DNA of 64,000 nucleotides from an uncultured Mycoplasmatota bacterium (GTDB lineage Bacteria > Bacillota_I > Bacilli_A > RF39 > UBA660): the NCBI GenBank assembly GCA_900553855.1, contig USFG01000003.1:12630-76629 (forward strand). The letters run 5' to 3'. Of the stretch, positions 19,628 through 53,489 are shown in pieces. Made by a program: the position numbers and the translations under genes. Under the pieces are notes generated by a model. The model was not told where the DNA came from. It worked only from the letters and a program-made list of their open reading frames with translations, and ran no database searches. Within the stretch, counting starts at the first letter, position 1. Every line of letters starts with the position of its first letter.

Positions 19628-19717
19628 ATAATCATTTTCCTTTCTTTTCAAAATAATTATATGAATAGGAAAAAAAGATATTCGCGAATATTCTTAAATA
19701 TCTTTATATTTTTTACG

Positions 19718-21049: not shown

Positions 21050-21128
21050 TCTATTCCTCTATCTTTATCTTATAACAATAATATATCACGTTTTTTGAAC
21101 GACTTTTATAAATTATGTATTATTTTGA

Positions 21129-21920: not shown

Positions 21921-21935
21921 ATTATGTTTTCCTCT

Positions 21936-23843: not shown

Positions 23844-23904
23844 TACCCTATGGTAAGTATATCATATAATAAATGTTTGTAGCAATTTTTTAAGATTTTT
23901 AGCA

Positions 23905-23930
23905 AAATAAAAACCAGATAACCTATCTGG
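23905..23930 (-). terminator. Rho-independent terminator closing the T4SS-like locus
   Basis: Stem CCAGATA/TATCTGG (23914-23920 / 23924-23930) with a 3-nt loop and a T-run on the minus strand. Lies 3 nt after the stop of 23934..24491. Confidence 0.5.
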
Positions 23931-23933
23931 AAT

Positions 23934-24491
23934 TTATGCAGCACTAAATAGAATTCTTGTTTCAAAGTTTTTATTTGCTTTAGTATTAGTGGTGTAATAA
24001 TAGATTACATAGGTGTGAACACTATTTTGAGATTCGGTACTAAAGAAACCATTACCTAAATCCATTACACTTTGACCTTCTTGTTTATTTAAATAGTATT
24101 TTGTTTTGGCATCAGCAAATTCTGTTTTAACACCGTTTTCATCGGTTTTACCACCTAGGATAAAATATACTTCATTATCTTCATATTCGTTATAGTTTAC
24201 TAGTAGAGATAACTTATAATTAATAATATCGGTTGCACTGTTATTTGTTCCTGTTAATGAAAATGTTTTAGAACCAATAAGTTCTCCTTGTTTTTCATAA
24301 TCGCTTGATTTAAATACTGGATTATTGCCTTGATAAGCAGCAATCATTTTACCATCTTTAACTTCAATAACGTCTAATTGGACACTTCCATCTAAACCAC
24401 TAGTCATATATGAAAAGCTTGTTCCTATTGTAACAACGACAATGATTGCAACTAACATTATACCTAATAAGGTTTTATTCATTTTATTCAT
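23934..24491 (-). CDS. TasA/camelysin-like (SipW-type signal) secreted protein, last gene of the T4SS-like operon
   Basis: Start at ATG 24491 behind a GAAGGTGA SD; the track's longer ORF start is unsupported. The N-terminus is MNKMNKTLLGIMLVAIIVVVTIGTSFSYMTSG, followed by a beta-rich region (FSLTGTNNS, YKLSLLVN). Confidence 0.6.
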   Translation of the reverse strand: MNKMNKTLLGIMLVAIIVVVTIGTSFSYMTSGLDGSVQLDVIEVKDGKMIAAYQGNNPVFKSSDYEKQGELIGSKTFSLTGTNNSATDIINYKLSLLVNYNEYEDNEVYFILGGKTDENGVKTEFADAKTKYYLNKQEGQSVMDLGNGFFSTESQNSVHTYVIYYYTTNTKANKNFETRILFSAA

Positions 24492-24545
24492 TTTATCACC
24501 TTCTATATTAATATTACTAAATTTAATAGAAAACTTCAATTATTT

Positions 24546-26810
24546 TTATTCACTAAAGAAATCGTCAAAGTATTCATCATCACTTGGATCGTTAACAACT
24601 TTACTATCTTTATCAACGACAATCTTAGGTTCATCTTTAACATTGTTCTTGGAATTATCACTTTGTTTAAAGAAATCATCGAATTTTTCAACCATAGTTG
24701 AATCTAGTTTATCGTAATCTGTAATTTTATTTGCTTGATTATTTTGTTTCTTTTGCTCTTCTTGTTCTTCTTTTTCTAATTCAGCAATTTTAGCATCGAT
24801 CTTTTTTAATATGTTGTCAACATCAAAATCGGGCTTAGAATTTATATTTTGTTCATTAGCACTTTTTTGAATCATTGGCAAATCTAAGAAGTCAGTTTTA
24901 TCTAAATCTTTTTTATCAGTTGGTTTTTGGTTTAACAAACTATTAAAGTCAAATGGAACACTATTTCCGCCAAATGGAGTATTATTACCAGATGGTTTAT
25001 TTAATCCTTCAAAAATATTACCAATTGGTTTTCCACCACCAAAACCTGCTCCATTCATTCCCATTCCACCATTATTTACGGATTCTAGAAACTTACTTTG
25101 CTTTTGATCTTGAACATATTTTTTAAAATCAAATATTTCAACAGGCGTTTGTTTTCTTTCAATAAATGGGGATTCTTCATCACTATGTCCCCAATTAATT
25201 TCATAACTTGGTGTTAATTTTGTTTTGTAGGGATTCATTCTTTGTCTTAAAATAACAACTTGGAATTTTTTTAGTTTTTGTAAATCACTTGGTGTTAATA
25301 ATGGACGTGATGCGGTTTTTTCTTTTTCTTTTGATTTAATTTCACCACATAATTTACTTATTTCATCTAAATCAGCTAAATCACTACTATTAATAAATAT
25401 TTTATTACCACAGTTACCTTTAATTGTATCGGCTTGTTCTTTGCCATATACATCATTTAACTGAGAAAATCCTTGAATAATAAAGGTAAATCTTATATTT
25501 CTTGAACGAGCTGCTGAAACCATTGCTGTAACATCTTTAAGTGGTGGCATGTTGGCAAACTCATCTAAAATAAAGTTGGTTCTTATTGGTAATTTTCCTT
25601 TTGGTGATTTGTGAGCAACATCAACTAAAACTTCATAAGCTTGTTTTAAGAAAATCGTTGCTAGTGGATGGTATGTTGTTTTTTCATCATGTATTACGAC
25701 GAATAAAGCTGTCTTTTCAGTACCTATTTTATGCATATCAAAATCACTATAACTAAGCATTTGACTTAAGTTTTTTTGTGTTGTAAATTTTTCCATTTTT
25801 TCACTAAATACGGATAACACACTGGTTCTTGTTTCAGTTGGACCAGTAATTGTTGATTTAGCAAAGTTATATGGTGTTGAATCTTTACCCTTTAAATTAA
25901 AGTATTCTGTCGAAAAGTTACTGTTCATTCCCATTTTTTCTTCACCGACAGCGGCCATATAGTTTATTGAATTAATATTAATATATTTTTCTTCAGCATC
26001 TTGAAATAAACCAAGTGCTAAACCATTGAAGTATCCCATACTAGCATTTCCCCAGAATGGATCATTTGCTTTAGGATCATTAACCATATTAAATGAAACG
26101 TCTTTTAATAACTCAATTGCTTTATCTTCGTTTCCTTGTTTATATAGATCATAAGGTATTGCCAAGGGATTCCAAGCATTTCCCATTTGTGGATCACGGA
26201 AATTTAATGTAATAATATTGTAACCTTTACTTCTTAAGAAATTAGCATGATCTCTATATAATTCACCTTTGGGGTCAGTAATAATCATTGATTCACCTTT
26301 ACGGCCTAAGCTTTCAATCATCGGCTCAACTACACATTGACTCTTACCGTTACCAGTTGATCCAATAACTAAGGTATGATATGAACCGTTATCTACCCAC
26401 ATAGCCTTGCCGTCATTAACCATAGGAACACCACCATATTCACTAGTTAATTCACTAATAACAACTTTTTTGACATCATCAGCATTTTTCATTTCTTTAT
26501 CAGTGGTGAATCTGGTATAACCTTTTTCCTCTTCTTTTTCACCTATTTTTAAACCTATTCCTCTACCTTTTTCATGGTCGAATATATATGAAGATATACT
26601 TAAAAATATTGATACTAAAACAGCAATAAACACAAATAAGGTAGCTGGTAAATAAGGTGGAAATAATCCAGCAAAAAAATTCAATCCATATAATTTTCCC
26701 TCGTTTAACAATGATGATAAGTTAACTACTGCTAATGAACATAAAATTAATAAAAATATACTATATATTACAAACATTATTAAATCTTTAGATGATACTC
26801 TAAATTTCAT
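24546..26810 (-). CDS. virD4: Type IV coupling protein (VirD4/TraG family)
   Basis: N-terminal TM helices, Walker A VIGSTGNGKSQ, ITDPKGELY, NAWNPL and Walker B-like FILDEFANMP. A ~200-aa low-complexity C-terminal tail ends in DDEYFDDFFSE. Confidence 0.9.
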   Translation of the reverse strand: MKFRVSSKDLIMFVIYSIFLLILCSLAVVNLSSLLNEGKLYGLNFFAGLFPPYLPATLFVFIAVLVSIFLSISSYIFDHEKGRGIGLKIGEKEEEKGYTRFTTDKEMKNADDVKKVVISELTSEYGGVPMVNDGKAMWVDNGSYHTLVIGSTGNGKSQCVVEPMIESLGRKGESMIITDPKGELYRDHANFLRSKGYNIITLNFRDPQMGNAWNPLAIPYDLYKQGNEDKAIELLKDVSFNMVNDPKANDPFWGNASMGYFNGLALGLFQDAEEKYININSINYMAAVGEEKMGMNSNFSTEYFNLKGKDSTPYNFAKSTITGPTETRTSVLSVFSEKMEKFTTQKNLSQMLSYSDFDMHKIGTEKTALFVVIHDEKTTYHPLATIFLKQAYEVLVDVAHKSPKGKLPIRTNFILDEFANMPPLKDVTAMVSAARSRNIRFTFIIQGFSQLNDVYGKEQADTIKGNCGNKIFINSSDLADLDEISKLCGEIKSKEKEKTASRPLLTPSDLQKLKKFQVVILRQRMNPYKTKLTPSYEINWGHSDEESPFIERKQTPVEIFDFKKYVQDQKQSKFLESVNNGGMGMNGAGFGGGKPIGNIFEGLNKPSGNNTPFGGNSVPFDFNSLLNQKPTDKKDLDKTDFLDLPMIQKSANEQNINSKPDFDVDNILKKIDAKIAELEKEEQEEQKKQNNQANKITDYDKLDSTMVEKFDDFFKQSDNSKNNVKDEPKIVVDKDSKVVNDPSDDEYFDDFFSE

Positions 26811-26859
26811 GTTAATCCCTCTTCTCTTCTTTAAATTATATAATATTATTTATTATATT

Positions 26860-28173
26860 TCAATTCTTACAATTAGCAGAATAGTAAGAACTCATATCTA
26901 TAACAGTATAGCTCTTTAATTCTTGATATGTATACTTTTTATAATCAAGTCCACTAGCATCTATATAGGCTACGGTAACATTTTCACCAGTATTTTGAAC
27001 TATAATGTATGCTTTATCTTCATTAATTACTAGATTTCCTGGATTTCCATATGCTAAATCAATTATATTTGATCTATCATTGTAATCACTAATATTAGTT
27101 ATAGGATTATTTATATTAGCACTATTTATGGCCCAATTTATAAGACTATATTCATTTAAACCAACTATATTACCATCAATTGTTTTTCCCCAATCTGGAT
27201 CAATAACTTTATATTCACTAGAAATATTACTATAAGGAATTTTATAGCCTTTCTTTCCTACTTCATCAATAAGAGTTACTGCTTTTTGAGCTACATTTAT
27301 TCCATTACATTGGTTATTACCAGCATTATTAATCTTATCTGTTAATTCAGTTATTCCATCTTCACCAATTTTTTCACCTAAACTAACTGATAAAACTTCA
27401 TTATCACTACTTGAGAAATCAGTGTCGGATTCTACTGTTCCAGTTTGATAATTAAGATTGCCAAAATTCCAAGTTGTCGTTTCTAAAATATTTTGTTCAT
27501 CACCATCAATTATGTAAAAAAGAAATAGAAAAAGGAATGCAACTCCGAATGCAGCGGCACATATACCTATTATTTTTAATTTTATTATAAGGAGTTTCTT
27601 GTTACCTAAAAATGATGCTGCTCCTCCTTTTTTGCCACCGATTAATCCAGTTATAGCGCTTGATGCATTACCTTTTCCTTTTAATAAACCGCTTATTCCT
27701 TGAGCTTTTGCACCTAATGGACTATTACCTGTAAGCCCATCTTTTGGTGATAAGGGACTCGAGCTGCCAGGACTTGCTGATGATAATGGATTATTATTAG
27801 CTATTCCTTTTAATGGATTTATCATTCTATTTGCTTTATTGGCAGCAAGTTTAGCTAAAGGATTATTACTTTGGTTTAATGCATTTAAGGTATTTTGCCC
27901 TTTAGTAATTAAATTTCTTCCTAAATTTGTACGAGAAAACTTATTATAAGCATTAGCTCCGACAGCAGTTGCAGCAGTAATAGCTGCACTTTTTGCTAGT
28001 TCTTTCATAGGATCAGATGAATACTGATTATTTGGCTTTTTTGCTATATTTGGCTCATTAATATTATTATCTTCTGGTAAATCTTCACTTTCAACTTCAG
28101 TTTGTTCACTTACTTCTTCAGATAAGTTTTCATTTTCTAATTCTTCATCTAAAGTTTCATAATCATTATTCAT
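26860..28173 (-). CDS. Bitopic T4SS-associated protein with [NS]PL repeats
   Basis: Acidic N-terminus and five [NS]PL motifs in a Gly/Ser/Lys-rich linker. One TM helix (IIGICAAAFGVAFLFLFLFYII). The ~200-aa external domain has a QCNGINVAQ motif; a papain-like/NlpC-P60-type fold is only a guess. Confidence 0.5.
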   Translation of the reverse strand: MNNDYETLDEELENENLSEEVSEQTEVESEDLPEDNNINEPNIAKKPNNQYSSDPMKELAKSAAITAATAVGANAYNKFSRTNLGRNLITKGQNTLNALNQSNNPLAKLAANKANRMINPLKGIANNNPLSSASPGSSSPLSPKDGLTGNSPLGAKAQGISGLLKGKGNASSAITGLIGGKKGGAASFLGNKKLLIIKLKIIGICAAAFGVAFLFLFLFYIIDGDEQNILETTTWNFGNLNYQTGTVESDTDFSSSDNEVLSVSLGEKIGEDGITELTDKINNAGNNQCNGINVAQKAVTLIDEVGKKGYKIPYSNISSEYKVIDPDWGKTIDGNIVGLNEYSLINWAINSANINNPITNISDYNDRSNIIDLAYGNPGNLVINEDKAYIIVQNTGENVTVAYIDASGLDYKKYTYQELKSYTVIDMSSYYSANCKN

Positions 28174-28184
28174 ATAATCACTCC

Positions 28185-28655
28185 TTAATTAATTCTTATC
28201 TTATAGTTGTTAATACTATTTTCAATAAAAACAAATTTATTATCGTCTTTATCAATTACATATACTGCTCTTTTGCCATCCACTATTCCACTAGAATAGC
28301 TTTTAACTTCAGCACTTAAAAACTTAATTGTTTTAATACTTGTAATCATTTTTTCAAATTCACTGTAAGTGGAATATTTATTTCTTGTTTCATTATCCAA
28401 ATTATTATATACATCTTTGGGATTATATAATATATCAGATACCAAATTGGCTAAATATTTGGATGAAATTTCCGCAGATGATAAATATAATCTTTGAATT
28501 TCATTTACTTTATAATCATGGAAATATTCAGTAAAATCATTAAATGTATTGGTTTTGTTAGCATTTTTACTATAAATTAATCCAAAAATGATTGTTCCAA
28601 TTATTGATATAACACTTATTATAATTACTATTTTTTCATCACTTTTGCTTTTCAT
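28185..28655 (-). CDS. Bitopic membrane protein (possible VirB8-like/NTF2-like component)
   Basis: N-terminal TM helix plus a ~120-aa alpha/beta domain. Overlaps the upstream paralogue by 17 nt. The functional assignment rests on architecture only. Confidence 0.4.
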   Translation of the reverse strand: MKSKSDEKIVIIISVISIIGTIIFGLIYSKNANKTNTFNDFTEYFHDYKVNEIQRLYLSSAEISSKYLANLVSDILYNPKDVYNNLDNETRNKYSTYSEFEKMITSIKTIKFLSAEVKSYSSGIVDGKRAVYVIDKDDNKFVFIENSINNYKIRIN

Positions 28656-29157
28656 TTATTACCTCATTATATTTAGTCTTATCAATAGGTGTTATTGAAA
28701 ATAATTTAAAATCTTTATCAACTTTTATAAATAAATATTCATCTTCTAGTTTATTAACTTTATTTTTTAATTCTTCATATACAGTACCTTTTACGTAATA
28801 GATATTGTCATGCATATACATTCCATTTAGTCTAATACTTATGTTTTTACCAATATATTTATTATTTAAATTATCTATATTATTATTAATACTATTTAAA
28901 TACTCTTGATCTAATATTTTTTTTAAACTGTCTTTATCATTTAAGGATAGATAACTTAAATATTTATTTACACAATTTTCTATTGTAAAAAAATCACTAT
29001 AATCATTAACTGTTTCATAAACATATGGTTTGGTTGTTTCAGGAACAACTTTATTATTTTCTTTTTTATTAGTACTAACGATATAAATTAAAACCCCAAC
29101 TAAAATAACAAAAATTATCATTAATATTATATTATTTATATTACTTTTATTCTTCAT
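28639..29157 (-). CDS. Bitopic membrane protein (possible VirB8-like/NTF2-like component)
   Basis: N-terminal TM helix plus a ~130-aa domain (FFTIENCVNKYLSYLSLNDKDSLKKILDQEY...YYVKGTVYEE...FIKVDKDFKLFSITP). Same architecture as 28185..28655. Confidence 0.4.
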   Translation of the reverse strand: MKNKSNINNIILMIIFVILVGVLIYIVSTNKKENNKVVPETTKPYVYETVNDYSDFFTIENCVNKYLSYLSLNDKDSLKKILDQEYLNSINNNIDNLNNKYIGKNISIRLNGMYMHDNIYYVKGTVYEELKNKVNKLEDEYLFIKVDKDFKLFSITPIDKTKYNEVINEKQK

Positions 29158-29168
29158 ATTTTTCCTTT

Positions 29169-31214
29169 TTAACTATTGCATCCATTAGTAACGTAATTAT
29201 AGTAGGATCTAGCATTATTTACTCTTGTTGTATCACATTGGGTGTGTTCTGTAGGATTTTCAAAATTATGGCAAAAATTTGATGTGATACTATCAACAGA
29301 TTCACTACCAGACATGATAGCATTATATAAACCACTATAACCGCTTTTAAGTTCTATAAACAAATAACTTATTTGGTTACCAGGATCACCTATTGATACT
29401 CCATTTTGTTTTGCGGAGTTTAGTAATCCGGCTTTTCTAGTGGAAAATGTCCATTGACATAATCCATAACCCGCATCATCATTTGCAAAATTAGTATATG
29501 TTCCATTATCAACGGCGGCTGTATAACTTTCATCAGTATGGCCAAGTGGCCCTTCAAAAGTATTTTGTAAATTAATATAATTGAATGCACTTTCAGCATT
29601 TATATTTGACATAATTGCCGCAATACCATTATCAGATGCTCCATATTCTTTTAAAGTTAAACAAACTGTTTGAGTCTTTGTTCCACCATTAATAGTACCT
29701 ACAGTTGATGGTTGAGGTCTAGGATTTTGGCTCGAAATATATGTGTTAGGATTTACTCTTGCTCCTGATGATATTTTAATTTCAAAATGAAGAGCTTTTT
29801 CATTAGTATCACCAGTTGTACCCATAGTACCAAGAACTTCTCCCTGAGTTACACTTTGTCCATCAGTAACATATACTTGATCTAAATATGCATATGTTGA
29901 ACTCATTCCATCAGAATGACTTACAACTACCATATTTCCATAGCCTGAATTACATGTTTTATCTCCTGATTCACAATTATTAACTACTTTAGAAACTACT
30001 CCAGACTTAATGCTTATTATATTAACTAAATCTTCACTTGATCCAATATCTATTCCCTCATTAGAACCAGGACTATAATCCTTAATTATATAGGCAGATA
30101 CTGGATTACCTTTAGCAAATTTTTTACCATTTTCCTCAGTAATTTCAGTACTCCCAATTGGATAATAATATTTATTATCAACACTAGTAAAATAAGTTAA
30201 ACTTTCAGGATTACTTCTATAAAACAATTCTAGGTTGTATTTAATTGCATCTATTATTTCTTGTCTTTCTTCAACTATTTTATCATGATATTTGTTATAT
30301 AGTTCATCATCATTTTCCATTGCCGATTCTAAATCTTCTAAAGTTTTGTAGCCAGATTCATCTACAATATGGGAAAAACGATATTGTAAATGAGGTTTTT
30401 TATCAAAATATTCACTTGTTTTTAAAAATTCCCAATATGCATCTTCACTAACTGTTTTATTATTAGCAACTGTATATGTGCCACCGCGATTTAAACATTC
30501 TTGATGTTTTTCGCTTCGAGTTATTCCAAAAAAATTGGTTAATCCAGATTTAACTAATAATTTTTCACCAAATGAGGCCATAGTAACTGAATCGACTGCT
30601 TTACAAGTAAAAGTATCACCTTCTTTGTGAAGTTCTCCTTGAGGACACGTTGGTACTGATTGATTATTTTCATTAATTTCATAAACTGGAGCAGTTGCAA
30701 CACTACATGTTGCCTCATAACCAATCATCGCTTTAATTAAAATTTTAATTGCATTTGATTCGGATGTTAGGGATGTATATCCCTCTTCCTCTTCATTATC
30801 ATCTATAGATATTTCATCATTTTCATTTTCAAAATCAAATGAAATTTTATCGAACCATCTTTTATAAAAAGCATTATCATCTCTAAATGAATCAGCATTT
30901 AGGCCATAATAAATAGTTGCAATAATTATTTCATCTTTAATATATAAACCACTACGTTCATATTTAGCTAACATCTTATATAATTTAGTATAAAATTTCT
31001 TTTGGCTTTTAATAGTTTGTTCAACACATTTTTCACTATCTTCTTCTTTTTCACATGTTCCTGACCAATAATTTTTAAATTGTTCAGCGAAGTCTTCCCA
31101 ATTAAAACTAGCGTAGTTATATCCATCTGCTTTTACATTATTAAATATCAAAAAAAGTGATATACATAATATCATTTTTATTAAAAATGGAATACTTTTA
31201 TTTATCACTTTCAT
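29169..31214 (-). CDS. Secreted cell-wall hydrolase: unknown N-domain, degenerate M23/LytM domain, C-terminal lysozyme-like (phage-tail-lysozyme type) domain
   Basis: Has a signal peptide. The M23 core is GYGNMVVVSHSDGMSSTYAYL..GQSVTQGEVLGTMGTTG. NEGIDIG replaces HxxxD and KALHFE replaces HxH. The C-terminal domain has GIAAIMSNINAESAFN...GYGLCQWT. Confidence 0.8.
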   Translation of the reverse strand: MKVINKSIPFLIKMILCISLFLIFNNVKADGYNYASFNWEDFAEQFKNYWSGTCEKEEDSEKCVEQTIKSQKKFYTKLYKMLAKYERSGLYIKDEIIIATIYYGLNADSFRDDNAFYKRWFDKISFDFENENDEISIDDNEEEEGYTSLTSESNAIKILIKAMIGYEATCSVATAPVYEINENNQSVPTCPQGELHKEGDTFTCKAVDSVTMASFGEKLLVKSGLTNFFGITRSEKHQECLNRGGTYTVANNKTVSEDAYWEFLKTSEYFDKKPHLQYRFSHIVDESGYKTLEDLESAMENDDELYNKYHDKIVEERQEIIDAIKYNLELFYRSNPESLTYFTSVDNKYYYPIGSTEITEENGKKFAKGNPVSAYIIKDYSPGSNEGIDIGSSEDLVNIISIKSGVVSKVVNNCESGDKTCNSGYGNMVVVSHSDGMSSTYAYLDQVYVTDGQSVTQGEVLGTMGTTGDTNEKALHFEIKISSGARVNPNTYISSQNPRPQPSTVGTINGGTKTQTVCLTLKEYGASDNGIAAIMSNINAESAFNYINLQNTFEGPLGHTDESYTAAVDNGTYTNFANDDAGYGLCQWTFSTRKAGLLNSAKQNGVSIGDPGNQISYLFIELKSGYSGLYNAIMSGSESVDSITSNFCHNFENPTEHTQCDTTRVNNARSYYNYVTNGCNS

Positions 31215-31233
31215 AGTTTACACCTTCTTTATT

Positions 31234-33574: not shown

Positions 33575-33875
33575 TTCGAATACACCAACCTTTCCAACGA
33601 TATTCTTTTTGACCTGTAAAATAATTATAAATATTTTTTATAAATGTTCTAACATTGTGTTGGTTTGGAAGTGGTATTACTAGGAATGCACAAAATAACA
33701 TTGGCATTATTATTGATACAATTCCTAGTAATGTACTTGTACTAACCGCAAATAATAATATAAGTGTTATTGTAAAACCAGTTCCAACTATTATTAAATC
33801 GGTGCTATTAAACATTCCTAATATTAACATTGATCTTTTTGAGTTAGCCGGAATTAAATAATCATTATTTCCCAT
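33555..33875 (-). CDS. Small two-TM protein in the VirB3/PrgI/TcpE position
   Basis: 106 aa with two adjacent TM helices. Lies immediately upstream of, and overlapping, the VirB4 N-domain gene. Confidence 0.5.
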   Translation of the reverse strand: MGNNDYLIPANSKRSMLILGMFNSTDLIIVGTGFTITLILLFAVSTSTLLGIVSIIMPMLFCAFLVIPLPNQHNVRTFIKNIYNYFTGQKEYRWKGWCIRNGEDTK

Positions 33876-33886
33876 TTCTATTCCTC

Positions 33887-36832: not shown

Positions 36833-36844
36833 GTAATATCACTC

Positions 36845-37261
36845 CTATCTTACACAAGTGTTTCCCTGACCCAGTGTTAATTCTAATAAAAAATTTAATA
36901 CTGAAGGTAGCAAATATAAAAGTACCACCAGTGCTAATCTAGTTGTAAACTTTTTGGCAGATTTTTGCAATCCTTCAGCCTGCTTGCTTGTTATTGATAC
37001 AACAAAATCATAACTAGATAGTGCTAAAGTTAACAAAGGGGCAACTATTTTAAATACATTAAATATTGATTGCAAATCTTGACCAAATGAACCTAGTGTA
37101 CTGCAATCTGTATTAGAGTTTTCATTAGCTAGAAGATTTATACCATAAGTATCATTATAATCTAATTTAGATTCAATGCTATCAGCATTTACACTTATAA
37201 AACAAAATAAACATGAAATTATAATAGATATATATATAATTTTATTTTTCATAATTACCAC
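36845..37261 (-). CDS. VirB2/TrbC-like pilin-type membrane protein, paralogue 1
   Basis: Signal peptide, N-proximal Cys (TDCSTLGSFG), two TM helices flanking a polar loop (SITSKQAEGLQKSAKK), and a C-terminal NTCVR. Confidence 0.5.
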   Translation of the reverse strand: MVIMKNKIIYISIIISCLFCFISVNADSIESKLDYNDTYGINLLANENSNTDCSTLGSFGQDLQSIFNVFKIVAPLLTLALSSYDFVVSITSKQAEGLQKSAKKFTTRLALVVLLYLLPSVLNFLLELTLGQGNTCVR

Positions 37262-37298
37262 CTATCATTGCACAATTATACACATAACATTATATCAT

Positions 37299-37327
37299 AC
37301 AAAAAAACAACAGTAAAGTTGTTTTTT
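37299..37327 (-). terminator. Rho-independent terminator after pilin-like paralogue 2
   Basis: Stem AAACAAC/GTTGTTT (37305-37311 / 37318-37324) flanked by A/T runs on both sides. Confidence 0.5.
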
Positions 37328-37339
37328 ATTATTTTATTA

Positions 37340-37693
37340 TTAATCTATTTGTTGTTGTGCTTCTGTACACTTGTATGGAGTTAAGATACATTTTTTACAT
37401 GTATTAAAACCTAGTTCATCAGATGCATCAGTAAATCCATTAACAAGTCCAAATATCCATAAAATAATAGATGGAGATAAGAATATTAAAATTCCAGCTG
37501 CTATTCTTATTCCTAATGATTTAGTATTCTTTTTAATATCATCATCTTTTCCAGATGTTACAGCTTTTCCTAAATCTATTGCTCCTAGTGCAACTATAAT
37601 AACAGGAATAGCAACTTTAAAAATTAATAACACATATCCTAATACTTGTACTACTGCACTCATTTTTGTACAAAAACTTCCTAATCCGCTCAT
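37340..37693 (-). CDS. VirB2/TrbC-like pilin-type membrane protein, paralogue 2 (no signal peptide)
   Basis: Strong AAGGAGAGAG SD. The product starts directly at MSGLGSFCTK, followed by TM1, the loop GAIDLGKAVTSGKDDDIKKN, TM2, and a C-terminal NTCKKCILTPYKC. Confidence 0.55.
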   Translation of the reverse strand: MSGLGSFCTKMSAVVQVLGYVLLIFKVAIPVIIVALGAIDLGKAVTSGKDDDIKKNTKSLGIRIAAGILIFLSPSIILWIFGLVNGFTDASDELGFNTCKKCILTPYKCTEAQQQID

Positions 37694-37767
37694 TTTCTCT
37701 CTCCTTTACATCTAATAAAATTATAAACTATTTATATAATTACGTCAAATATTTTACAATAATATTT

Positions 37768-38736
37768 TTATATTTTTTGTTGTTTATTAAATCCTAATTT
37801 AATTAACAACTTATCTATAGATAGTAATCTATCTTTTTTATCATCAAAATTATTTAAATTATAATAAACTTTTAAATCAGTTTCTTTTTCAAAATAATTG
37901 ATTTCTTCATCTTTTAAAGCACTGCGATTTAACACTATTTTTATATCATTTAGTTTATCTTTATATTTATTAATATTTTTGATAAATTTTGATATTCTAA
38001 TAATACCAGGCTCTAATAAATAAATAATGTCTGTGCATATGTTATTCTTATCTTCAAATTCATTTAAATCAATAATTATTGCATCTATTCCTTTTAATCC
38101 TTGAATCTTTGTTTCAGCTTCTGTGTAGTCGTTACAAAATATTATATCAGGGTTTCTAAAATACATAGCATCAAAACCATTTAGTTCAATACCTTTAACT
38201 TTATAGTTAAACGCTAATTGTTTAACCATTTGTTGCATTAATGTTGTAGATCCGGCACCTTCACTTAGGTTTTTAATACCTATTATTTTCATTTCATTTA
38301 CTTTAAATGCTGAATTAGTGCTACCGATTGAACTATTTAATTCACTTGTAAATGTTGTTGTTTGAATATATTTTTTTACATCTTCATAAGTATTAGATCT
38401 ATTAACTAAGAAACTAACTCCTTGTGAATTACTTGTAAAATTATAATAACCATTATTAATTAACTGGGTTAAAAATTCTTTACTATTACAATAAGCACTA
38501 TCATTTAAAAGTAAAATTACTTTGTCTTTGCCAAAGTAATTTAAAAATTCAAATAAATCAAAACTTGAAAAATAATTTTTTATTGCAGTTATATCAATTA
38601 TTACTTTGTTAAAATAAAAATTTACTAGTTCTTTTTCAACACTGTTAACGTCATAGACTCCATTTAATACTTTAATAATATCTATTGTTAATGAGTTTAC
38701 TACTCTTGTATTTTCATTTACAATTACTAAATTCAT
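37768..38736 (-). CDS. TadZ/CpaE-like protein: receiver-like N-domain plus ParA/MinD-fold domain with degenerate Walker A
   Basis: The N-terminal ~120 aa have a pseudo-receiver pattern (VIIDIT...KVILLLND). This is followed by IIGIKNLSEGAGSTTLM in place of KGGxGK[ST]T, IIIDL (Walker B-like), and LNRS. Confidence 0.5.
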   Translation of the reverse strand: MNLVIVNENTRVVNSLTIDIIKVLNGVYDVNSVEKELVNFYFNKVIIDITAIKNYFSSFDLFEFLNYFGKDKVILLLNDSAYCNSKEFLTQLINNGYYNFTSNSQGVSFLVNRSNTYEDVKKYIQTTTFTSELNSSIGSTNSAFKVNEMKIIGIKNLSEGAGSTTLMQQMVKQLAFNYKVKGIELNGFDAMYFRNPDIIFCNDYTEAETKIQGLKGIDAIIIDLNEFEDKNNICTDIIYLLEPGIIRISKFIKNINKYKDKLNDIKIVLNRSALKDEEINYFEKETDLKVYYNLNNFDDKKDRLLSIDKLLIKLGFNKQQKI

Positions 38737-38745
38737 ATAACCACC

Positions 38746-39210
38746 TTAATCTTTTGCAAAATATACTGCCTTGCTTTCTCCGGTAACTGGAAATGTAAAT
38801 GCGTTATCTAAAATCGGAATATCAAATTTAAAAAACACGGTTACTCTATAATATTTTCTGTTTAAAGTATCTCCTTCAATCGATCTTTCGTAAACACAAT
38901 ATTTATATTTATCAGCATTTCCTTGTTTTTCATATCCCGTTAATTTACCATTTATTGCTCCATCTAGATAATCATCTCCAGTATCAGTACACTTACCATA
39001 TACATAATATCCTGTACTGTTAAGATATTTTACTATTTTTTCCTGAGTTTTATCTGTTAATCCTTCATTTTCTTCAATTAAAGATATAATTTCATTTTTA
39101 ACTTTAAAAGCTTTTGAGTAATTAACAGATAGAGCAAGATAACTAGTGAATAATACAACAAAAGTAATTACAATTCCAACTAGCCAGGCTCCACCAATTG
39201 ACTCTCTCAT
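38746..39210 (-). CDS. TadE-like pseudopilin candidate
   Basis: Short charged leader MRESIGG followed by a hydrophobic helix AWLVGIVITFVVLFTSYLAL. The leader resembles that of the upstream Flp-like gene (KEASGE). Confidence 0.4.
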   Translation of the reverse strand: MRESIGGAWLVGIVITFVVLFTSYLALSVNYSKAFKVKNEIISLIEENEGLTDKTQEKIVKYLNSTGYYVYGKCTDTGDDYLDGAINGKLTGYEKQGNADKYKYCVYERSIEGDTLNRKYYRVTVFFKFDIPILDNAFTFPVTGESKAVYFAKD

Positions 39211-39224
39211 ACTATCTTATAATA

Positions 39225-39488
39225 CTATCCATTATTTGTGTTTGAACTTGTATCTTTTTCAACTGGGCAAACAACATCTTTCATATCGCCATTAGCATCA
39301 TAATATTTACATTTACAAGTACTTTCATTTCCAGAACATTCACAATTAAATTTATTAGCACATTTTGTTTGATTTAAAATATTTACCTTTATTTGTGGCC
39401 AAACAAGTGCTGTAAAAACACCTCCAATAGCCGCAATAGCAACAACTGTGATAGCTGTCATACTTAATTCTCCTGATGCTTCTTTCAT
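39225..39488 (-). CDS. Flp-like small pilin candidate with Cys-rich C-terminus
   Basis: Strong AAGGAGGA SD. The leader MKEASGE is followed by LSMTAITVVAIAAIGGVFTALVW (compare Flp ...G/VTAIEYGLIA, but without EY). The C-terminal part carries 6 Cys. Confidence 0.45.
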   Translation of the reverse strand: MKEASGELSMTAITVVAIAAIGGVFTALVWPQIKVNILNQTKCANKFNCECSGNESTCKCKYYDANGDMKDVVCPVEKDTSSNTNNG

Positions 39489-39528
39489 ATATAAATTCCT
39501 CCTTTATTTTATAATTTTATTATATATC

Positions 39529-39563
39529 AAAAAAAATAAACTATCAATATAATTTGACAGTTT
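39529..39563 (-). terminator. Rho-independent terminator after pilin-like paralogue 3
   Basis: 10-position stem TAAACTATCA/TGACAGTTTA (39537-39546 / 39554-39563, one mismatch) followed on the minus strand by T8. Confidence 0.5.
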
Positions 39564-39578
39564 ATATGTTAAGAGTAA

Positions 39579-39989
39579 TTATTTATTATTTGATTTTGGA
39601 CAATTACTTGGATTAGATATGCATGCTAAACAAGTTTTGTAGTCAGCCGGTTGTTTATTGAAAGCATCTACAACAAGATTAACAAATGTTGGTAAAAAGA
39701 ATACTGCAAAGCCTATTACTATTCTTTTTCCAAGTGTAATTATTTGATTTTTTAAATCATCATCTTTACCGCTTGTTACTGCTTTATATAAATCAAATGT
39801 TCCCATTGCTATTATTAATAATGGCACTATTGTTCTTACTATTAAGATTGAGTAAGACACTAATTTTAATGTGCTTCCAAAATCTGAGCAAAAATTGTTT
39901 GCTACAGGAGCTTCATTTTCTGCTAGTACATTAATATAACTAAAATTTAATAATAAAATTAATAATTTACTCATAATCATATTTTTCAT
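39579..39989 (-). CDS. VirB2/TrbC-like pilin-type membrane protein, paralogue 3
   Basis: Signal peptide (..NVLA/ENE), NFCSDFGST, TM1, the loop GTFDLYKAVTSGKDDDLKNQ (near-identical to paralogue 2), TM2, and a C-terminal KTCLACISNPSNC. Confidence 0.55.
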   Translation of the reverse strand: MKNMIMSKLLILLLNFSYINVLAENEAPVANNFCSDFGSTLKLVSYSILIVRTIVPLLIIAMGTFDLYKAVTSGKDDDLKNQIITLGKRIVIGFAVFFLPTFVNLVVDAFNKQPADYKTCLACISNPSNCPKSNNK

Positions 39990-41121
39990 CCGCCTTTGCT
40001 GGTATCATATTTTTTATAAATTTAAAGGCTACTACGCCAATAATTCCTATGATTAATAATATTAATAAAATAGTTAAGAAATTACTTTTCTTCTTTGGTA
40101 CTACTACTGTTTCTTTAATAATATTAAAATAAAATGTTTTTTCAGTTAAATCTTCAGCTATTACTTTAACAGTAACTATACTACCATTTACTAAATCACT
40201 ATTGTCATTTATTTCATATGTTGCGTTTTCATCCTCTAATTCAATATTAAAATTTAATGAATTTGTATCTTGGTTTACTACTACATCATAATTTTGTTTA
40301 TTATTATCAAAATCTAAATTGTAATTTTCAATTGTTATATTTTTGATATTGATATTATTTGATAGTGCTTTATAAGTTAAGTTGATAGTATAATCTTTAA
40401 TACTTCCGTCTTCAGCTGTTACAGTAATAATTATGGGATTAATAATACTTATTGGATCATTATTTCTTACATTTACAGTAGCTTTATCTGATTCGGTTTC
40501 ATATTTTATATCTATTTTATTAACTGTTTTATCTATAACTATTTCATAGGTTAATTGTTCTTTATAAAAGTTAATTGTGTATCCTTCAATTGTTAGACTT
40601 TTTAAAAAGGCATTACTATCTTTAACTAGGGCTGTTGTCGTTGTCGTAGTTGTGGTTGTTTTGGTTGGCTTAGTAGTTCTTCTTTTGGTTGTGGTTGTTG
40701 TTCTTTTAGTTGTTTTTGTTTTTTTAGTTGTTGGTTTAGTTGTTGTTTTTTTAGGTATATATATAGATCCATCTGAAACCTTGTCACAATCATAGGCATA
40801 AGTAATACCACAATATGTTTCGGAGCTATTTGAACATGCTCCTTGATAATCATTACAACCAGACGAAATAACATATTGATAATAATCTTCATTACCATTT
40901 GAACAACTAACTGTATTTCCTCTTACAAACAATTTTTGAGTTTGCCATTGACCTTTATCACATTTTGCCTTTATACAATAATTGATACTTCCAGAACCAC
41001 TAGAAATTATTCCTTTAGTTTGAAAATTTGTGCAGTCAAAATAGTTACTACCAAATTTTAGATTAGCACCAAACACGGTTAATGGAAATAATAAACATAT
41101 AAGTAATATTATCTTTTTCAT
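39967..41121 (-). CDS. Surface protein: Cys-rich N-domain, Thr/Lys-rich stalk, two cadherin-like beta-sandwich repeats, C-terminal TM anchor
   Basis: Has a signal peptide and a stalk TTTKPTTKKTKTTKRTTTTTKRRTTKPTKTTTTTTTTT. The beta-sandwich repeats read LKSLTIEGYTINF...YEIVID...VTAEDGSIKDYTINL and IKNITIENYNLDF...VKVIAEDLTEKTFYFNI. The anchor is FLTILLILLIIGIIGVVAF. Confidence 0.7.
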   Translation of the reverse strand: MKKIILLICLLFPLTVFGANLKFGSNYFDCTNFQTKGIISSGSGSINYCIKAKCDKGQWQTQKLFVRGNTVSCSNGNEDYYQYVISSGCNDYQGACSNSSETYCGITYAYDCDKVSDGSIYIPKKTTTKPTTKKTKTTKRTTTTTKRRTTKPTKTTTTTTTTTALVKDSNAFLKSLTIEGYTINFYKEQLTYEIVIDKTVNKIDIKYETESDKATVNVRNNDPISIINPIIITVTAEDGSIKDYTINLTYKALSNNINIKNITIENYNLDFDNNKQNYDVVVNQDTNSLNFNIELEDENATYEINDNSDLVNGSIVTVKVIAEDLTEKTFYFNIIKETVVVPKKKSNFLTILLILLIIGIIGVVAFKFIKNMIPAKADEKYDYE

Positions 41122-41135
41122 AACAACCTCTTTCC

Positions 41136-41163
41136 AAAAAAATAATACCGTAATGGTATTATT
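41136..41163 (-). terminator. Rho-independent terminator after 41206..41823
   Basis: 9-bp stem AATAATACC/GGTATTATT (41141-41149 / 41155-41163) with a 5-nt loop and T7 on the minus strand. Confidence 0.55.
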
Positions 41164-41205
41164 TCACCAAGACCTATAATAATAATATCATAATATTATT
41201 ATTTT

Positions 41206-41823
41206 TTAAATCTTTTTAAACACATTTTTCTTATCTACAACATATAAAAGTGCTGTTACAGCAATGCCGATTGTTCCAAGTGCTATAAAATAATCTTCAA
41301 CACCTGTTTCTTTGTTATCAGTTGTACCTGTATCTTTTGTAGTATCGCCATCTTTGTTTCCACTATTTGTAGTTGTAGTAGTTGTTGTACTATATGGTTT
41401 TTTATTATCATCAGTACTTCCTGCTAAATAATCACAATCAAATTTATAAATTCTTGTTGCATATAATTTACTTTCATTTTCATCAGCAGTACATGCACTG
41501 CCATTTTCAATTGATTTTCCTTTTGTTCCATCAACTACATTGTTATAGTATGGATTAGTATTACCATTTGCACATGTTAATGTACTTGCAATAGCACTAT
41601 TCATAATAGTATAAACTCTTTTGCCATTAGTACATGTTATTTCTAATCCTTCAATGTAGAAACCGTTTGTAGCATTTTTTATACTTTCATTAAGTTTAAG
41701 TGATTCTTCAACTTGTGGTTTTGCATCTGCTGCTGCTCCAATTGCTTGAGTACTGCTACTAACCTCAGCTCTAACTGCCAAAGGCATAACTAATAACAAT
41801 CCTAAAATAAACATCTTTTTCAT
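41206..41823 (-). CDS. Surface protein with the same Cys-rich N-domain, Thr-rich stalk and C-terminal TM anchor
   Basis: Start at ATG 41823 behind a GGAGGAAAG SD. Has a signal peptide (..AVRA/E). The domain ...TCANGNTNPYYNNVV..GSAC....YKFDCD is paralogous to 39967..41121 (..SCSNGNEDYYQYVI..GAC...YAYDCD). Confidence 0.6.
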   Translation of the reverse strand: MKKMFILGLLLVMPLAVRAEVSSSTQAIGAAADAKPQVEESLKLNESIKNATNGFYIEGLEITCTNGKRVYTIMNSAIASTLTCANGNTNPYYNNVVDGTKGKSIENGSACTADENESKLYATRIYKFDCDYLAGSTDDNKKPYSTTTTTTTNSGNKDGDTTKDTGTTDNKETGVEDYFIALGTIGIAVTALLYVVDKKNVFKKI

Positions 41824-41925
41824 ATTTCTTTCCTCCATTTATTCCTTGCTTACTTTACTTTTCTATTAAACTATTAATAGTATACCATAAAATTTTATAA
41901 ATAAACATATAATTTTTTTATTTAT

Positions 41926-42732
41926 TTAAGATTTTTTACCACTTTTAGTATCAATTGTTTCATCATAATATTTGCTATCATAAATTGTTACTCTATGAAT
42001 ATCTATTTTGTTTTTCTTTTTATAACTTAAATAATAGATACTATCACTTGAAATATTTAGTTTATTATTAAAAGATAAATCATAATCTTCAATTAATGTT
42101 AATTCTTGTCCTATGACAAATGGAACTTCGTAAATAATTTTAAAATCATCATTTAGGGTGTAAACATAATGTCTACTTGTTGAATAGTCATTAGCGTTAA
42201 TATTAGTATCAATTACTAAATATTCTTTATTATCTAATCCTTTTATTTTATTAAAATGAATATTATCTAATTTTATACTTCCTAGTTCACTATAAGTTTC
42301 TTTAGTATCATTTATTTTAATTACTTTACTTAATTTAGTATTGTTAAAATACAATTCTAGATAATAACTATAATAAACATTATTTTCTTTATCTTCATTT
42401 TCTTCTTGATATATTACATATCTAATACCTACTTCATTATCATTTAATTTAATACTTGTAAAACTATTATCACTTTGAACTATTTTCATATCTCTAACAA
42501 CATAATTATCTTTGATATTTTTAAGTGTATCATAATCTTTTCTATTAAAGGTTTTATATAATTTTTCATTTATTTTGGTATTACTTACTATATTATCTTC
42601 ATTAATATTCTTTTCTTTTTTCTTATTAATTGCTTTGTATAACACGATACTAAGTAATGCGATTATTATGCATAACATGATTATTAAGACAATATATTCC
42701 CAATTTTTAAATTCTTTTTCTTTTTCCATCAA
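41926..42732 (-). CDS. Bitopic membrane protein, first gene of the T4SS-like locus
   Basis: N-terminal TM helix (YIVLIIMLCIIIALLSIVLY) and a beta-rich ~220-aa external part. No recognisable family. Confidence 0.5.
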   Translation of the reverse strand: MMEKEKEFKNWEYIVLIIMLCIIIALLSIVLYKAINKKKEKNINEDNIVSNTKINEKLYKTFNRKDYDTLKNIKDNYVVRDMKIVQSDNSFTSIKLNDNEVGIRYVIYQEENEDKENNVYYSYYLELYFNNTKLSKVIKINDTKETYSELGSIKLDNIHFNKIKGLDNKEYLVIDTNINANDYSTSRHYVYTLNDDFKIIYEVPFVIGQELTLIEDYDLSFNNKLNISSDSIYYLSYKKKNKIDIHRVTIYDSKYYDETIDTKSGKKS

Positions 42733-42757
42733 TTATCAACCTCTTTGCTACAATTAA

Positions 42758-42786
42758 ATATTATCAATTTAAATATATTTATTCAA
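42758..42786 (-). promoter_or_regulatory. Sigma-A-type promoter of the T4SS-like locus
   Basis: On the minus strand: TTGAAT (42786-42781), a 17-nt spacer, then TAATAT (42763-42758). Lies directly downstream of the dnaI terminator and ~25 nt upstream of the AGAGG SD. Confidence 0.4.
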
Positions 42787-42809
42787 GAAAAAAGCAGTTA
42801 TTCTGCTTT
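42787..42809 (-). terminator. Rho-independent terminator of the dnaB-dnaI operon
   Basis: Stem AAAGCAG/CTGCTTT (42791-42797 / 42803-42809) with loop TTATT and a T-run on the minus strand. Confidence 0.55.
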
Positions 42810-43005
42810 AAGTTTATTATAAGTTATTAAAAAGAAATTATAATATCTATATTCAGTATTCAGTGCATTTATAATAAAAATCTTTTAATACCAGTCACGA
42901 TTTTAATCAATCCAATTATATGCTATTTAAATTATCTTTTCAAAATTTTATTGAGAATTTTGCCACTTTTACTACTTTTTTTCAATGAAACACTAATAAT
43001 ACAAA

Positions 43006-47426: not shown

Positions 47427-47466
47427 AATTGCTCCTCTTTTCATTAAAAATATTATATCAAATACT

Positions 47467-53483: not shown

Positions 53484-53489
53484 TTTACA

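Follow-up and report, generated by a model that had tools for sequence, protein, structure and literature searches.

Introduction

Almost all Gram-positive type IV secretion systems (T4SSs) that have been studied are transfer systems of plasmids or of integrative and conjugative elements (ICEs) (PMC12857230). How, then, is a T4SS-like locus to be understood that lies between core genes of a gut bacterium and has no recognizable relaxase gene? The question is raised by a 64,000-nucleotide stretch of contig USFG01000003.1 from an uncultured Mycoplasmatota bacterium (hereafter the window), in which 19 consecutive genes encode a VirD4 coupling protein, a VirB4 ATPase and further T4SS-like components. 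An initial annotation of this DNA, made without database searches, had taken the locus for a domesticated T4SS rather than a standard ICE. Our analysis supports this view through the conserved gene order and context of the locus, the co-divergence of its VirB4 with RmuC, the selection acting on its genes, and the missing mobility genes. The locus is probably a domesticated, chromosomally fixed descendant of a Gram-positive conjugation apparatus that lacks a relaxase, has been inherited mostly vertically and is under purifying selection, and it may have been repurposed for a non-conjugative task. A search of the literature turned up no description of such a system in these organisms.

Core components of the locus

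The 19 open reading frames (ORFs), all on the minus strand like nearly all genes of the window (about 25% G + C), occupy positions 23934-42732 with short gaps or small overlaps (Table 1). The Pfam scans covered every window ORF of at least 90 amino acids (aa) and two shorter ones, a rhodanese ORF of 77 aa and o87 of 87 aa; the locus proteins were also compared with NCBIfam. VirD4 matched T4SS-DNA_transf in Pfam (E 2e-54) and scored 298 bits against the NCBIfam model conju_CD1115, above the 250-bit cut-off, and its Walker A (GSTGNGKS) and Walker B (ILDEF) motifs are intact. The VirB4 core matched AAA_10, P-loop_TraG and CagE_TrbE_VirB in Pfam; its best NCBIfam match was VirB4_plasma, the Mycoplasma-ICE family of Mbov_0397 (355.7 bits, E 4e-106, cut-off 590), and the match to conju_CD1110 (E 4e-54) was likewise below the equivalog cut-off. 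The N-terminal domain of VirB4 is encoded by an ORF of its own, which scored 56.5 bits against VirB4_plasma and has orthologues that match the Pfam TraC-like family. Because the same two-ORF layout was found in all 80 related loci and on plasmid pBMB68, the split is native and not the result of a frameshift.

The VirB6-like protein was recognized at a sub-threshold level: its N-terminal 360 residues matched the MMCAP2_0566 conjugal transfer domain (E 6e-12; 45 bits, cut-off 90), and its orthologue in L084 (loci and contigs used for comparison carry L numbers) gave a weak TrbL_4 match. The C-terminal extension of this protein is the most G + C-rich part of the locus (0.34-0.35). Contigs with an identical VirD4 (L090-L095) encode VirB6-like proteins of 832, 873 or 981 aa, and the length of the extension thus varies within the species. 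Support for the VirB3-like protein is moderate, a hidden Markov model (HMM) of its family matching a PrgI-family protein of pBMB68 (E 3e-4) and a protein of a Mycoplasmatota plasmid (E 3.5e-8). The small bitopic proteins o172 and o156, distant paralogues of each other (88.6% in hhalign), had been assigned a VirB8 architecture in the initial annotation. While their topology and position agree with that assignment, no VirB8 or TcpC match was found in Pfam or NCBIfam and the PDB sequence-profile search gave chance-level matches only; both are weak candidates for VirB8-like proteins, read from topology and position.

Of the components of a Gram-positive (monoderm, MPF_FATA/FA-type) T4SS, VirB4, VirD4, VirB6- and VirB3-like proteins (sub-threshold scores) and a hydrolase of predicted VirB1 function were found, with o172 and o156 as weak candidates for the VirB8-like (NTF2-fold) component. 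The scans agree with the initial annotation in naming VirD4, a VirB4 in two ORFs, an extended VirB6-like protein and a two-transmembrane protein in VirB3 position, and also in the cell-wall hydrolase, the three VirB2-like proteins and the surface adhesin-like proteins described below.

Spread, gene order and context in relatives

In a species-level scan with the VirB4 core as query and one genome per species, more than 562 genomes encoded a close VirB4 relative, and the best 80 of these, which were examined, were 73-97% identical to the query. The 80 are uncultured gut metagenome-assembled genomes from human (Hadza, UMGS), rabbit, ruminant, rodent and other samples, with records labelled Bacilli, Tenericutes, Erysipelotrichales or similar. 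We mapped the window proteins onto the related loci, which covered at most 10 kb on either side of the related genes, and clustered all ORFs of these loci into families. A conserved order emerged, running from prepilin-like genes, o154 (1-2 copies), o322 and 1-6 VirB2-like pilin genes through VirB6, VirB3, the N-terminal and core ORFs of VirB4, the hydrolase, o172 and o156 to a large variable hydrolase-type membrane protein, the lipoprotein f8 and VirD4. The f8 lipoprotein was not found in the window clade. The succession of VirB6, VirB3 and the two VirB4 ORFs was kept in 60 of the 63 loci with enough sequence.

The surroundings of the locus are conserved as well. Of the 45 loci whose sequence extends beyond VirD4, 33 have a rhodanese gene among the next four genes downstream, usually with a DedA-like gene (21 loci) and rmuC (19 loci) next, and M16 peptidase genes follow in another subgroup of loci; upstream, dnaI precedes the locus in the window, L005 and L084. 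In the window, the rhodanese, DedA-like and rmuC genes (52422-54374) are separated from VirD4 by about 27 kb and lie beyond the opposite end of the locus, upstream of ftsEX, which indicates a local rearrangement in the window clade. Within the species, 152 public contigs of up to 1.17 Mb carry a VirB4 sequence identical to that of the window, and 91 carry an identical VirD4 sequence. The context was invariant on every such contig that was read, all from human gut metagenomes (22 of 22 for VirD4 and 8 of 8 for o635, an ORF of the flank beyond o201). No variable insertion site was seen among these 30 contigs, and the housekeeping neighbours are conserved across species. The comparison with close relatives that the initial annotation had proposed thus yielded a conserved gene order, a housekeeping neighbourhood and an invariant context within the species.

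Inheritance and selection

VirB4 and RmuC diverge together. In the 21 genomes with both genes, their pairwise identities are correlated (Pearson r = 0.90), and VirB4 is the more conserved of the two proteins (mean 78% versus 69%). The ratio of nonsynonymous to synonymous substitution rates (dN/dS) relative to L001 was 0.03-0.38 for 18 of the 19 locus genes, with dS near saturation for most of the comparisons, and o268 was without a comparator. For o117 the L001 comparison involves a mismatched paralogue, and L002 and L005 gave a value of 0.46. The lowest ratios were those of VirB4 (0.03; range 0.03-0.12) and VirD4 (0.07), and the adhesin genes are the fastest-evolving of the locus. Judged by these ratios, 18 of the 19 locus genes show purifying selection.

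Missing mobility genes and core-gene flanks

No match to a relaxase, Rep_trans, Tyr/Ser recombinase, DDE transposase, single-stranded DNA-binding protein or primase was obtained among the scanned ORFs of the 64-kb window, and a tblastn search with the MobP3 relaxase of the closest plasmid gave no homologue in the 1.53 Mb of the window and related loci. No tRNA gene was found in the window. A search for flanking att-like direct repeats returned imperfect AT-rich repeats only, none of them convincing. In these respects the initial annotation, which had listed the missing mobility genes and repeats, was correct for the window.

Its description of the flanks as core genes holds too. On the dnaI side, the profile scans identified DnaB (Bacillus type), DnaI (equivalog cut-off passed), CotE, FtsE/FtsX, RmuC, ThrS and a MiaB-like protein, and on the other side a radical-SAM/SPASM protein, a C39-like peptidase, RRF, MutS, MutL, MiaA, FtsK, RuvX and MltG.

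The flanking ORF o635 was considered as a hidden relaxase, a notion that found no support: no homology was detected in Pfam, NCBIfam or PDB profiles, and in L037 it lies beside rmuC and away from the T4SS.

Nearest mobile relatives and the Tad-like module

The nearest VirB4 among 72,556 plasmids is only 28.8-30.6% identical to that of the window. The nearest mobile relatives are pXO2/pAW63-like plasmids of Bacillus thuringiensis (pBMB68, NZ_CP010581) and the Mycoplasmatota plasmid mentioned above. On pBMB68, a MobP3 relaxase gene is followed by genes for a CD1115 VirD4, a small protein, a TrbL-family protein, a PrgI-family protein, a 228-aa ORF and a DUF87 VirB4, then by those for an NlpC/P60 protein, a bitopic protein and a receiver-plus-ParA-like protein, and further on by those for a DUF5411 protein, a SAF-domain protein, an AAA ATPase, a T2SS/T4P/T4SS-family ATPase and two hypothetical membrane proteins. 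The window shares with this tra region the CD1115 VirD4, the order VirB6/TrbL, PrgI/VirB3, N-terminal VirB4 ORF and VirB4, the NlpC/P60-type hydrolase and bitopic proteins downstream, and a receiver-plus-ParA-like protein. HMMs built from the locus families and run against the pBMB68 proteins (Z = 10,000) connected the N-terminal VirB4 family with the 228-aa ORF before VirB4 (E 5e-23), the VirB3 family with the PrgI-family protein at the value given above, family f44 with the T2SS/T4P/T4SS-family ATPase (E 5e-22), and families f22 and f18 each with a hypothetical membrane protein (E 7e-8 and 5e-8, respectively).

The last three families belong to a Tad-like block of distant relatives of the window, in which a T2SSE-family ATPase (Pfam E 8e-27) and two polytopic proteins are encoded directly upstream of the prepilin-like genes. 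The best NCBIfam matches of this ATPase were VirB11 and TadA-family ATPases, both below cut-off; the polytopic proteins f18 and f22 gave no T2SSF match, and the PDB profile search with f18 stayed at chance level. The block is homologous and present in L083, L026, L030 and L055, and L083 adds a DUF5411 protein and a CpaB-like protein (TIGR03177 E 8e-9, below cut-off), the latter matching the pBMB68 SAF-domain protein in a single-sequence phmmer search (E 3e-13). Distant relatives such as L083 are thus collinear and homologous with pBMB68 in DUF5411, SAF/CpaB, T2SSE ATPase and the two polytopic proteins. The Mycoplasmatota plasmid has the same pairing of T4SS and Tad genes, with canonical Flp prepilins bearing the G/xxxxEY motif. 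Since a homologous Tad-like module stands beside the T4SS on the nearest plasmids, the composite is ancestral and not a sign of repurposing. The initial annotation, which had held Tad-like genes to be foreign to conjugation modules, was therefore wrong for this family. A review of conjugation in the B. cereus group describes the T2SS/T4P-type ATPase only as a VirB11 homologue (PMC9673590).

The block is absent from the window itself. A tblastn search of the whole 64 kb found no Tad ATPase, platform, CpaB or DUF5411 block, and its place is taken in the window and L001-L020 by adhesin-like genes and one additional pilin gene. Compared with a Tad (Flp) pilus, the window therefore lacks the TadA/CpaF ATPase, the TadB/C platform and CpaB. 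What it has are o87, o154 and o322, which had been labelled Flp-, TadE- and TadZ-like. Members of the o87 family (o87/f25) are always found directly before o154 and, in distant relatives, directly behind the T2SSE ATPase gene and the pair of polytopic genes next to it, in that order. Common to o87 and o154 is a leader of the form M[KR]E[AS]xG followed by a hydrophobic helix, without an EY motif, and neither protein has a Pfam or NCBIfam match to Flp or TadE. In an AF2 model of o154 (pLDDT, a predicted confidence score, of 80), an N-terminal helix of residues 3-47 packs on a four-stranded sheet; the model gave no significant Foldseek match in PDB, and on its modelled topology o154 (dN/dS 0.11) appears pilin-like. 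For o322 the model and secondary structure suggest two domains, of which the N-terminal one is of alpha/beta (receiver-like) type and the C-terminal one has a degenerate ParA/MinD fold without the Walker-A lysine. Foldseek matched it to ParA, MinD, FlhG, FleN and HypB, including 3ea0 (E 1e-5 to 1e-3), with target TM-scores of only 0.4-0.6. No specific TadZ entry was matched, nor was there a PDB sequence match or a Pfam or NCBIfam match. A large protein collection holds 1297 relatives of o322, the best 120 of which have neither a Pfam domain nor a functional name. The predicted structure of o322 suggests a TadZ-like architecture, the Flp and TadE labels gained no profile support, and all three labels remain architectural. 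As read from their sequences, proteins of pBMB68 (L087 17946-19256) and of the Mycoplasmatota plasmid (L088 19108-20949) combine a receiver-like with a ParA-like part and a degenerate Walker A motif, the architecture of o322; the o322 family HMM does not detect them.

For all these similarities, the window has no counterpart to the relaxase gene that directly precedes VirD4 on pBMB68, nor to the replicon, the primase and the toxin-antitoxin genes of this plasmid. In the window VirD4 stands at the far end, VirB4 is only about 29% identical, and the locus is chromosomal, at a fixed site and lineage-wide. The window clade has no Tad ATPase, platform or CpaB, and carries an array of VirB2-like pilins where pBMB68 has one small protein.

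Comparison with other known systems

The T4SS of Patescibacteria/Saccharibacteria resembles the locus in being chromosomal and of monoderm type (VirB1-, B3-, B4-, B6-, B8- and D4-like) in small-genome, largely uncultured hosts (PMC12102498; PMC12857230). Divergent VirB2-like pilin arrays, lineage-wide conservation and a housekeeping neighbourhood are further common features, and a relaxase is absent from most Patescibacteria clusters (PMC12102498). Compared by description only, the two differ in phylum and in the merger of the present locus with Tad-like genes and cadherin-like adhesins, and domestication was presumably independent of the Patescibacteria system. In Southlakia, the Patescibacteria T4SS is essential for epibiotic growth (PMC12102498; PMC12857230).

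With the Mycoplasma ICEs (ICEA/ICEB), the locus has in common a minimal T4SS, a ParA-like protein and a related host lineage, a surface protein required for mating being a feature of those ICEs (PMC6030558). Mycoplasma ICEs have no identified relaxase and mediate chromosomal transfer (PMC6030558). That the locus might fall into a known ICE family by profile match was touched upon in so far as the best VirB4 and VirB6 models are Mycoplasma-ICE models, but both scores are below cut-off (355.7 and 56.5 bits against 590 for VirB4, and 45 against 90 for VirB6). Unlike a Mycoplasma ICE, moreover, the locus has no CDS22-type Mutator-like DDE transposase or inverted repeats, is single-copy at a fixed site and has a VirD4 of CD1115 type, and its wall hydrolases, VirB8-position proteins and VirB2-like pilins are absent from Mycoplasma ICEs. 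PAPI-1 and IncI elements also encode type IV filament genes together with VirB4 and VirD4, and there the two work together (PMC12857230); unlike the locus, these elements are mobile, belong to diderms and possess a relaxase and type IVb pili, and no sequence relationship connects them with it.

Wall hydrolases with degenerate motifs

The predicted cell-wall hydrolase has Peptidase_M23 and Phage_lysozyme2 domains in Pfam, the lysozyme-like domain at E 2.4e-25, and its best NCBIfam matches are non-catalytic LytM-type activators. Its M23 motifs read N.GID and ALH or SLH in the window and L001-L005 (NEGID...ALH in the window), as against HxGxD...HLH in other relatives. A second protein, o437, was tied by tblastn to NlpC/P60-bearing proteins of relatives, and the PDB profile search with it gave chance-level matches only. 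Its catalytic Cys motif, DCSGF in relatives, is NEYSL in the window and of the NEYSL type in L001-L004 as well. From these motifs, the M23 and NlpC/P60-like domains look catalytically dead in the window clade. Both proteins are under purifying selection despite the degenerate motifs (dN/dS 0.15 for the hydrolase and 0.32 for o437).

Pilins, adhesins and other surface proteins

The three VirB2-like proteins o136, o117 and o138 form a single paralogue family with 139 members across 59 loci. Of 106 scanned members, 64 matched the Pfam family T4SS_pilin (best E 9.6e-8), 11 CagC and 4 TrbC; o136, o117 and o138 each taken alone remained below the Pfam threshold, and the family gave chance-level matches only against PDB profiles. 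Some relatives in this family carry large N-terminal domains (L039 1795-3666, L039 3668-4774, L008 1542-2555 and similar) that comprise a VgrG3-C-like lysozyme, an M15 carboxypeptidase with amidase_3, or a domain of unknown type. By their domain composition, such fusions would amount to wall-degrading enzymes anchored through a pilin-like module.

The adhesin-like o384 has Cadherin-like beta-sandwich domains and repeats in its Thr-rich linker, and L081 and L084 encode larger paralogues (1101-1116 aa). The o210 family was found in 9 loci (dN/dS 0.16 versus L001). No family match was obtained for o268 in the Pfam and NCBIfam scans; L084 has a 269-aa gene at its position. At the other end of the locus, o201 is present only in the closest clade, in 6-7 loci and sometimes duplicated. 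Its earlier description as TasA-like could not be sustained, as no Pfam or NCBIfam match was found and the PDB profile search gave chance-level matches only.

Table 1. Positions of the features of the locus within the window, in the direction of reading of the minus strand
Feature	Position	Strand	Basis or remark
Terminator-like hairpin after dnaI	42791-42809	-	7-bp stem followed by T-run; upstream border of the locus
Putative promoter TTGAAT-N17-TAATAT	42758-42786	-	8 of 12 consensus positions; below scan threshold
o268, first gene of the locus	41926-42732	-	N-terminal transmembrane helix
o210, surface protein	41206-41838	-	Signal peptide, Thr-rich stalk, C-terminal transmembrane anchor
o384, adhesin-like	39967-41121	-	Pfam Cadherin-like, E 8e-9; Thr-rich linker, C-terminal transmembrane anchor
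o136, VirB2-like T4SS pilin paralogue	39579-39989	-	BLAST family with o117 and o138
o87, prepilin-like, Flp position	39225-39488	-	Leader MKEASG, hydrophobic helix, Cys-rich tail
o154, pilin-like, TadE position	38746-39210	-	Leader MRESIGG; 1-2 copies in relatives
o322, cytoplasmic two-domain protein, TadZ-like architecture	37768-38736	-	AF2 model, pLDDT 82.6
o117, VirB2-like T4SS pilin paralogue	37340-37693	-	Same BLAST family
o138, VirB2-like T4SS pilin paralogue	36845-37261	-	Same BLAST family
VirB6-like polytopic channel protein	33887-36832	-	Long Ala/Lys/Gln-rich C-terminal extension
VirB3/PrgI-like two-transmembrane protein	33555-33875	-	Family in 74 loci
VirB4 N-terminal (TraC-like) domain, own ORF, 184 aa	33020-33574	-	VirB4_plasma positions 98-281
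VirB4 ATPase core	31234-33027	-	Walker A GTSGSGKST and Walker B VMYVDEAH intact
Cell-wall hydrolase, M23/LytM and lysozyme-like domains	29169-31214	-	Pfam
o172, bitopic, VirB8/TcpC position	28639-29157	-	Topology read from sequence; family in 31 loci
o156, bitopic, o172 paralogue	28185-28655	-	Topology read from sequence
o437, acidic N-terminus, transmembrane helix, C-terminal NlpC/P60-like domain	26860-28173	-	tblastn
VirD4 coupling protein, CD1115 family	24546-26810	-	Long low-complexity C-terminal tail
o201, secreted or anchored accessory protein	23934-24539	-	Last gene of the locus
Terminator-like hairpin, end of the locus	23914-23930	-	Hairpin scan

Borders, control signals and neighbouring genes

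The locus is bracketed by two terminator-like hairpins (42809-42791 and 23930-23914). The initial annotation had drawn it as a unit running from a promoter to a terminator; the 19 ORFs and the hairpin at the end agree with this, but the promoter gained no support, matching the consensus at 8 of 12 positions in DNA where promoter-like sites are not enriched (142 observed in the AT-rich window versus 142.3 in shuffles). The putative promoter is well placed, after the dnaI hairpin and before a ribosome-binding site, and is a positional guess. A closer match to the consensus, TTGAAA-17-TATAAT (11 of 12) at 42915-42943, lies between dnaI and o268 and upstream of the 42809-42791 hairpin, into which transcription from this site would run. 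Rfam gave no match at gathering score in the whole window and none at E up to 1 in the intergenic region 5' of the locus, so that no riboswitch hints at how the locus is regulated. In Firmicutes, thrS is usually preceded by a T-box leader. Upstream of the window thrS (61144-63533), Rfam found no T-box at gathering score.

Downstream of the locus, the region 14619-21920 encodes the radical-SAM/SPASM protein, the C39-like peptidase, which has an Ig-like domain, a LysM protein, two unassigned proteins and a protein of 802 aa in which the ALK/LTK glycine-rich domain was strongly matched (E 8e-76; G + C 0.356), and may be a peptide-maturation or surface-protein cluster. In the strain contig L091, the radical-SAM gene is split into 162 and 84 aa. 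On the opposite side, a HipA_C/PI3-PI4-kinase-like gene (46281-47444) lies near dnaB, and in L084 two HipA_C-like genes (268-2426) stand between dnaI and the first locus gene.

Discussion

The profile, context and selection data make it probable that the locus is a domesticated conjugation apparatus, and several observations weigh against this interpretation. The presence of the locus was sampled only from genomes with VirB4. Five related loci (L038, L043, L046, L053 and L068) have no VirD4 within 8 kb downstream of VirB4, and the half with the coupling protein would appear to have been lost or to lie elsewhere in some species. The flank from o201 to o635 (21694-24504) is 90.9% identical to L002 and 84.7% to L001, whereas the T4SS genes (24494-41911) are 67-77% identical to L002 and 78-83% to L001, and dS relative to L002 is 0.086 for o635 as against about 0.9 for the T4SS genes; this conflict implies recombination or allelic replacement among related species, so that inheritance was not strictly vertical. 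A relaxase or oriT is possible elsewhere in the genome, our scans having covered the window and the related loci. Finally, the degenerate hydrolase motifs together with the missing Tad ATPase, platform, CpaB and f8 lipoprotein could mean a partial loss of function.

Could the locus instead be the transfer module of a still-mobile ICE or integrated plasmid, whose relaxase, oriT and recombinase lie elsewhere or, as might be the case for o635 or o268, are too divergent to be recognized? The kept VirD4 of the conjugative CD1115 family would fit such a module, as would the best VirB4 and VirB6 matches, which are to ICE or plasmid families, the conflicting relationships of locus and flank at fine scale, an o635 without detectable homology, and the example of Mycoplasma ICEs and pXO16, which transfer without an identified relaxase (PMC6030558; PMC9673590). 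We nevertheless consider it unlikely, because the same housekeeping neighbours occur in many species, the 30 same-species contigs are invariant, VirB4 co-diverges with RmuC (r = 0.90), and the 64 kb contain no att repeats, tRNA gene or recombinase. In addition, o635 behaves as a chromosomal neighbour in L037, where it is found beside rmuC and away from the T4SS, and VirB4 is 28.8-30.6% identical to plasmid copies versus at least 73% within the clade (best 80 genomes).

The surface genes suggest another possibility, that of an organelle chiefly for adhesion, with pili, whose Tad-like and VirB2-like pilins and cadherin-like adhesins would fasten the cell to mucus or to other cells, and in which the T4SS ATPases are kept for assembly only and nothing is translocated into a partner. 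Six of the 19 genes encode pilin-like or anchored surface proteins, the adhesin genes evolve fastest and are expanded in relatives (the 1101-1116-aa paralogues), and the length of VirB6 differs between strains. Such an organelle would hardly account for VirD4, however: this substrate receptor is among the most conserved proteins of the locus (dN/dS 0.07), has intact Walker motifs and is without a known role in pilus biogenesis alone (PMC12857230), and a Tad pilus would draw its power from the Tad ATPase and platform, the genes for which the window clade has lost. We regard a pure adhesion organelle as distinctly improbable. That the locus is a decaying, functionless remnant of an old integrated conjugative element is hardly credible. 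The missing relaxase, the loss of the Tad ATPase, platform, CpaB and f8, and the degenerate M23 and NlpC/P60 motifs might be taken that way, but none of the 19 ORFs is disrupted or differs in length from its counterparts in relatives, the ATPase motifs are preserved, dN/dS is well below 1 in all 18 comparable genes, VirB4 is more conserved than RmuC, and the locus persists in hundreds of reduced-genome species, where useless DNA normally disappears.

If the locus is indeed a domesticated conjugation apparatus, its parent would have been a pXO2/pAW63-like minimal T4SS with a Tad-like pilus module, from which the relaxase gene next to VirD4 was lost, and domestication would date back to the ancestor of a large clade of Mycoplasmatales-related gut Bacilli with small genomes of low G + C content. 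The Tad-like module, as the comparison shows, is an old partner of this T4SS family, including that of pXO2-like plasmids. VirB6, VirB3, the split VirB4 and VirD4 would form an ATP-driven membrane channel, which the hydrolase-type proteins and the two bitopic proteins would take through the thin wall. The three VirB2-like pilins, o87, o154 and the cadherin-like adhesins could make up the part for surface display and contact, with o322 positioning or scaffolding the assembly. On contact with another cell, VirD4 would feed a macromolecule into the channel; that VirD4 has been retained argues that something is translocated. As to what this is, two options appear about equally likely by analogy with known systems. 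One is DNA exchange, either independent of a relaxase or with a relaxase acting in trans, modelled on chromosomal transfer in Mycoplasma (PMC6030558) and on pXO16, for which no relaxase has been identified (PMC9673590). The other is protein or other cargo, in an exchange that might support a dependent lifestyle as proposed for the Patescibacteria T4SS, and the chromosomal, relaxase-less system of that group may be the closest functional analogue of the locus.

Humans, rabbits, ruminants and rodents commonly harbour Mycoplasmatales-related Bacilli in their guts, and these bacteria have so far escaped cultivation. A reduced genome, a thin wall and numerous auxotrophies characterize them (PMC12306168; PMC10868615). 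More tentatively, and at rather less than even chances, the locus can be seen as a lineage-defining, contact-dependent machine of RF39-, RFN20- or ML615J-28-type gut Bacilli that was domesticated from a conjugative ancestor with T4SS and Tad genes, independently of the Patescibacteria system, and is needed for their lifestyle. It might then serve either relaxase-independent exchange of chromosomal DNA, which would fit the mosaic relationship of locus and flank, or as a conduit through which auxotrophs exchange macromolecules with the neighbours on which they depend. The domestication proposed here would be the second independent takeover of a monoderm conjugation apparatus by its hosts, after that in Patescibacteria. 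Strong selection has preserved a large envelope-spanning machine in the reduced genomes of hundreds of species, and this machine probably has a central place in their way of life; if it does, it points to cell-to-cell dependence or DNA exchange in these gut bacteria and could guide attempts at their co-culture.

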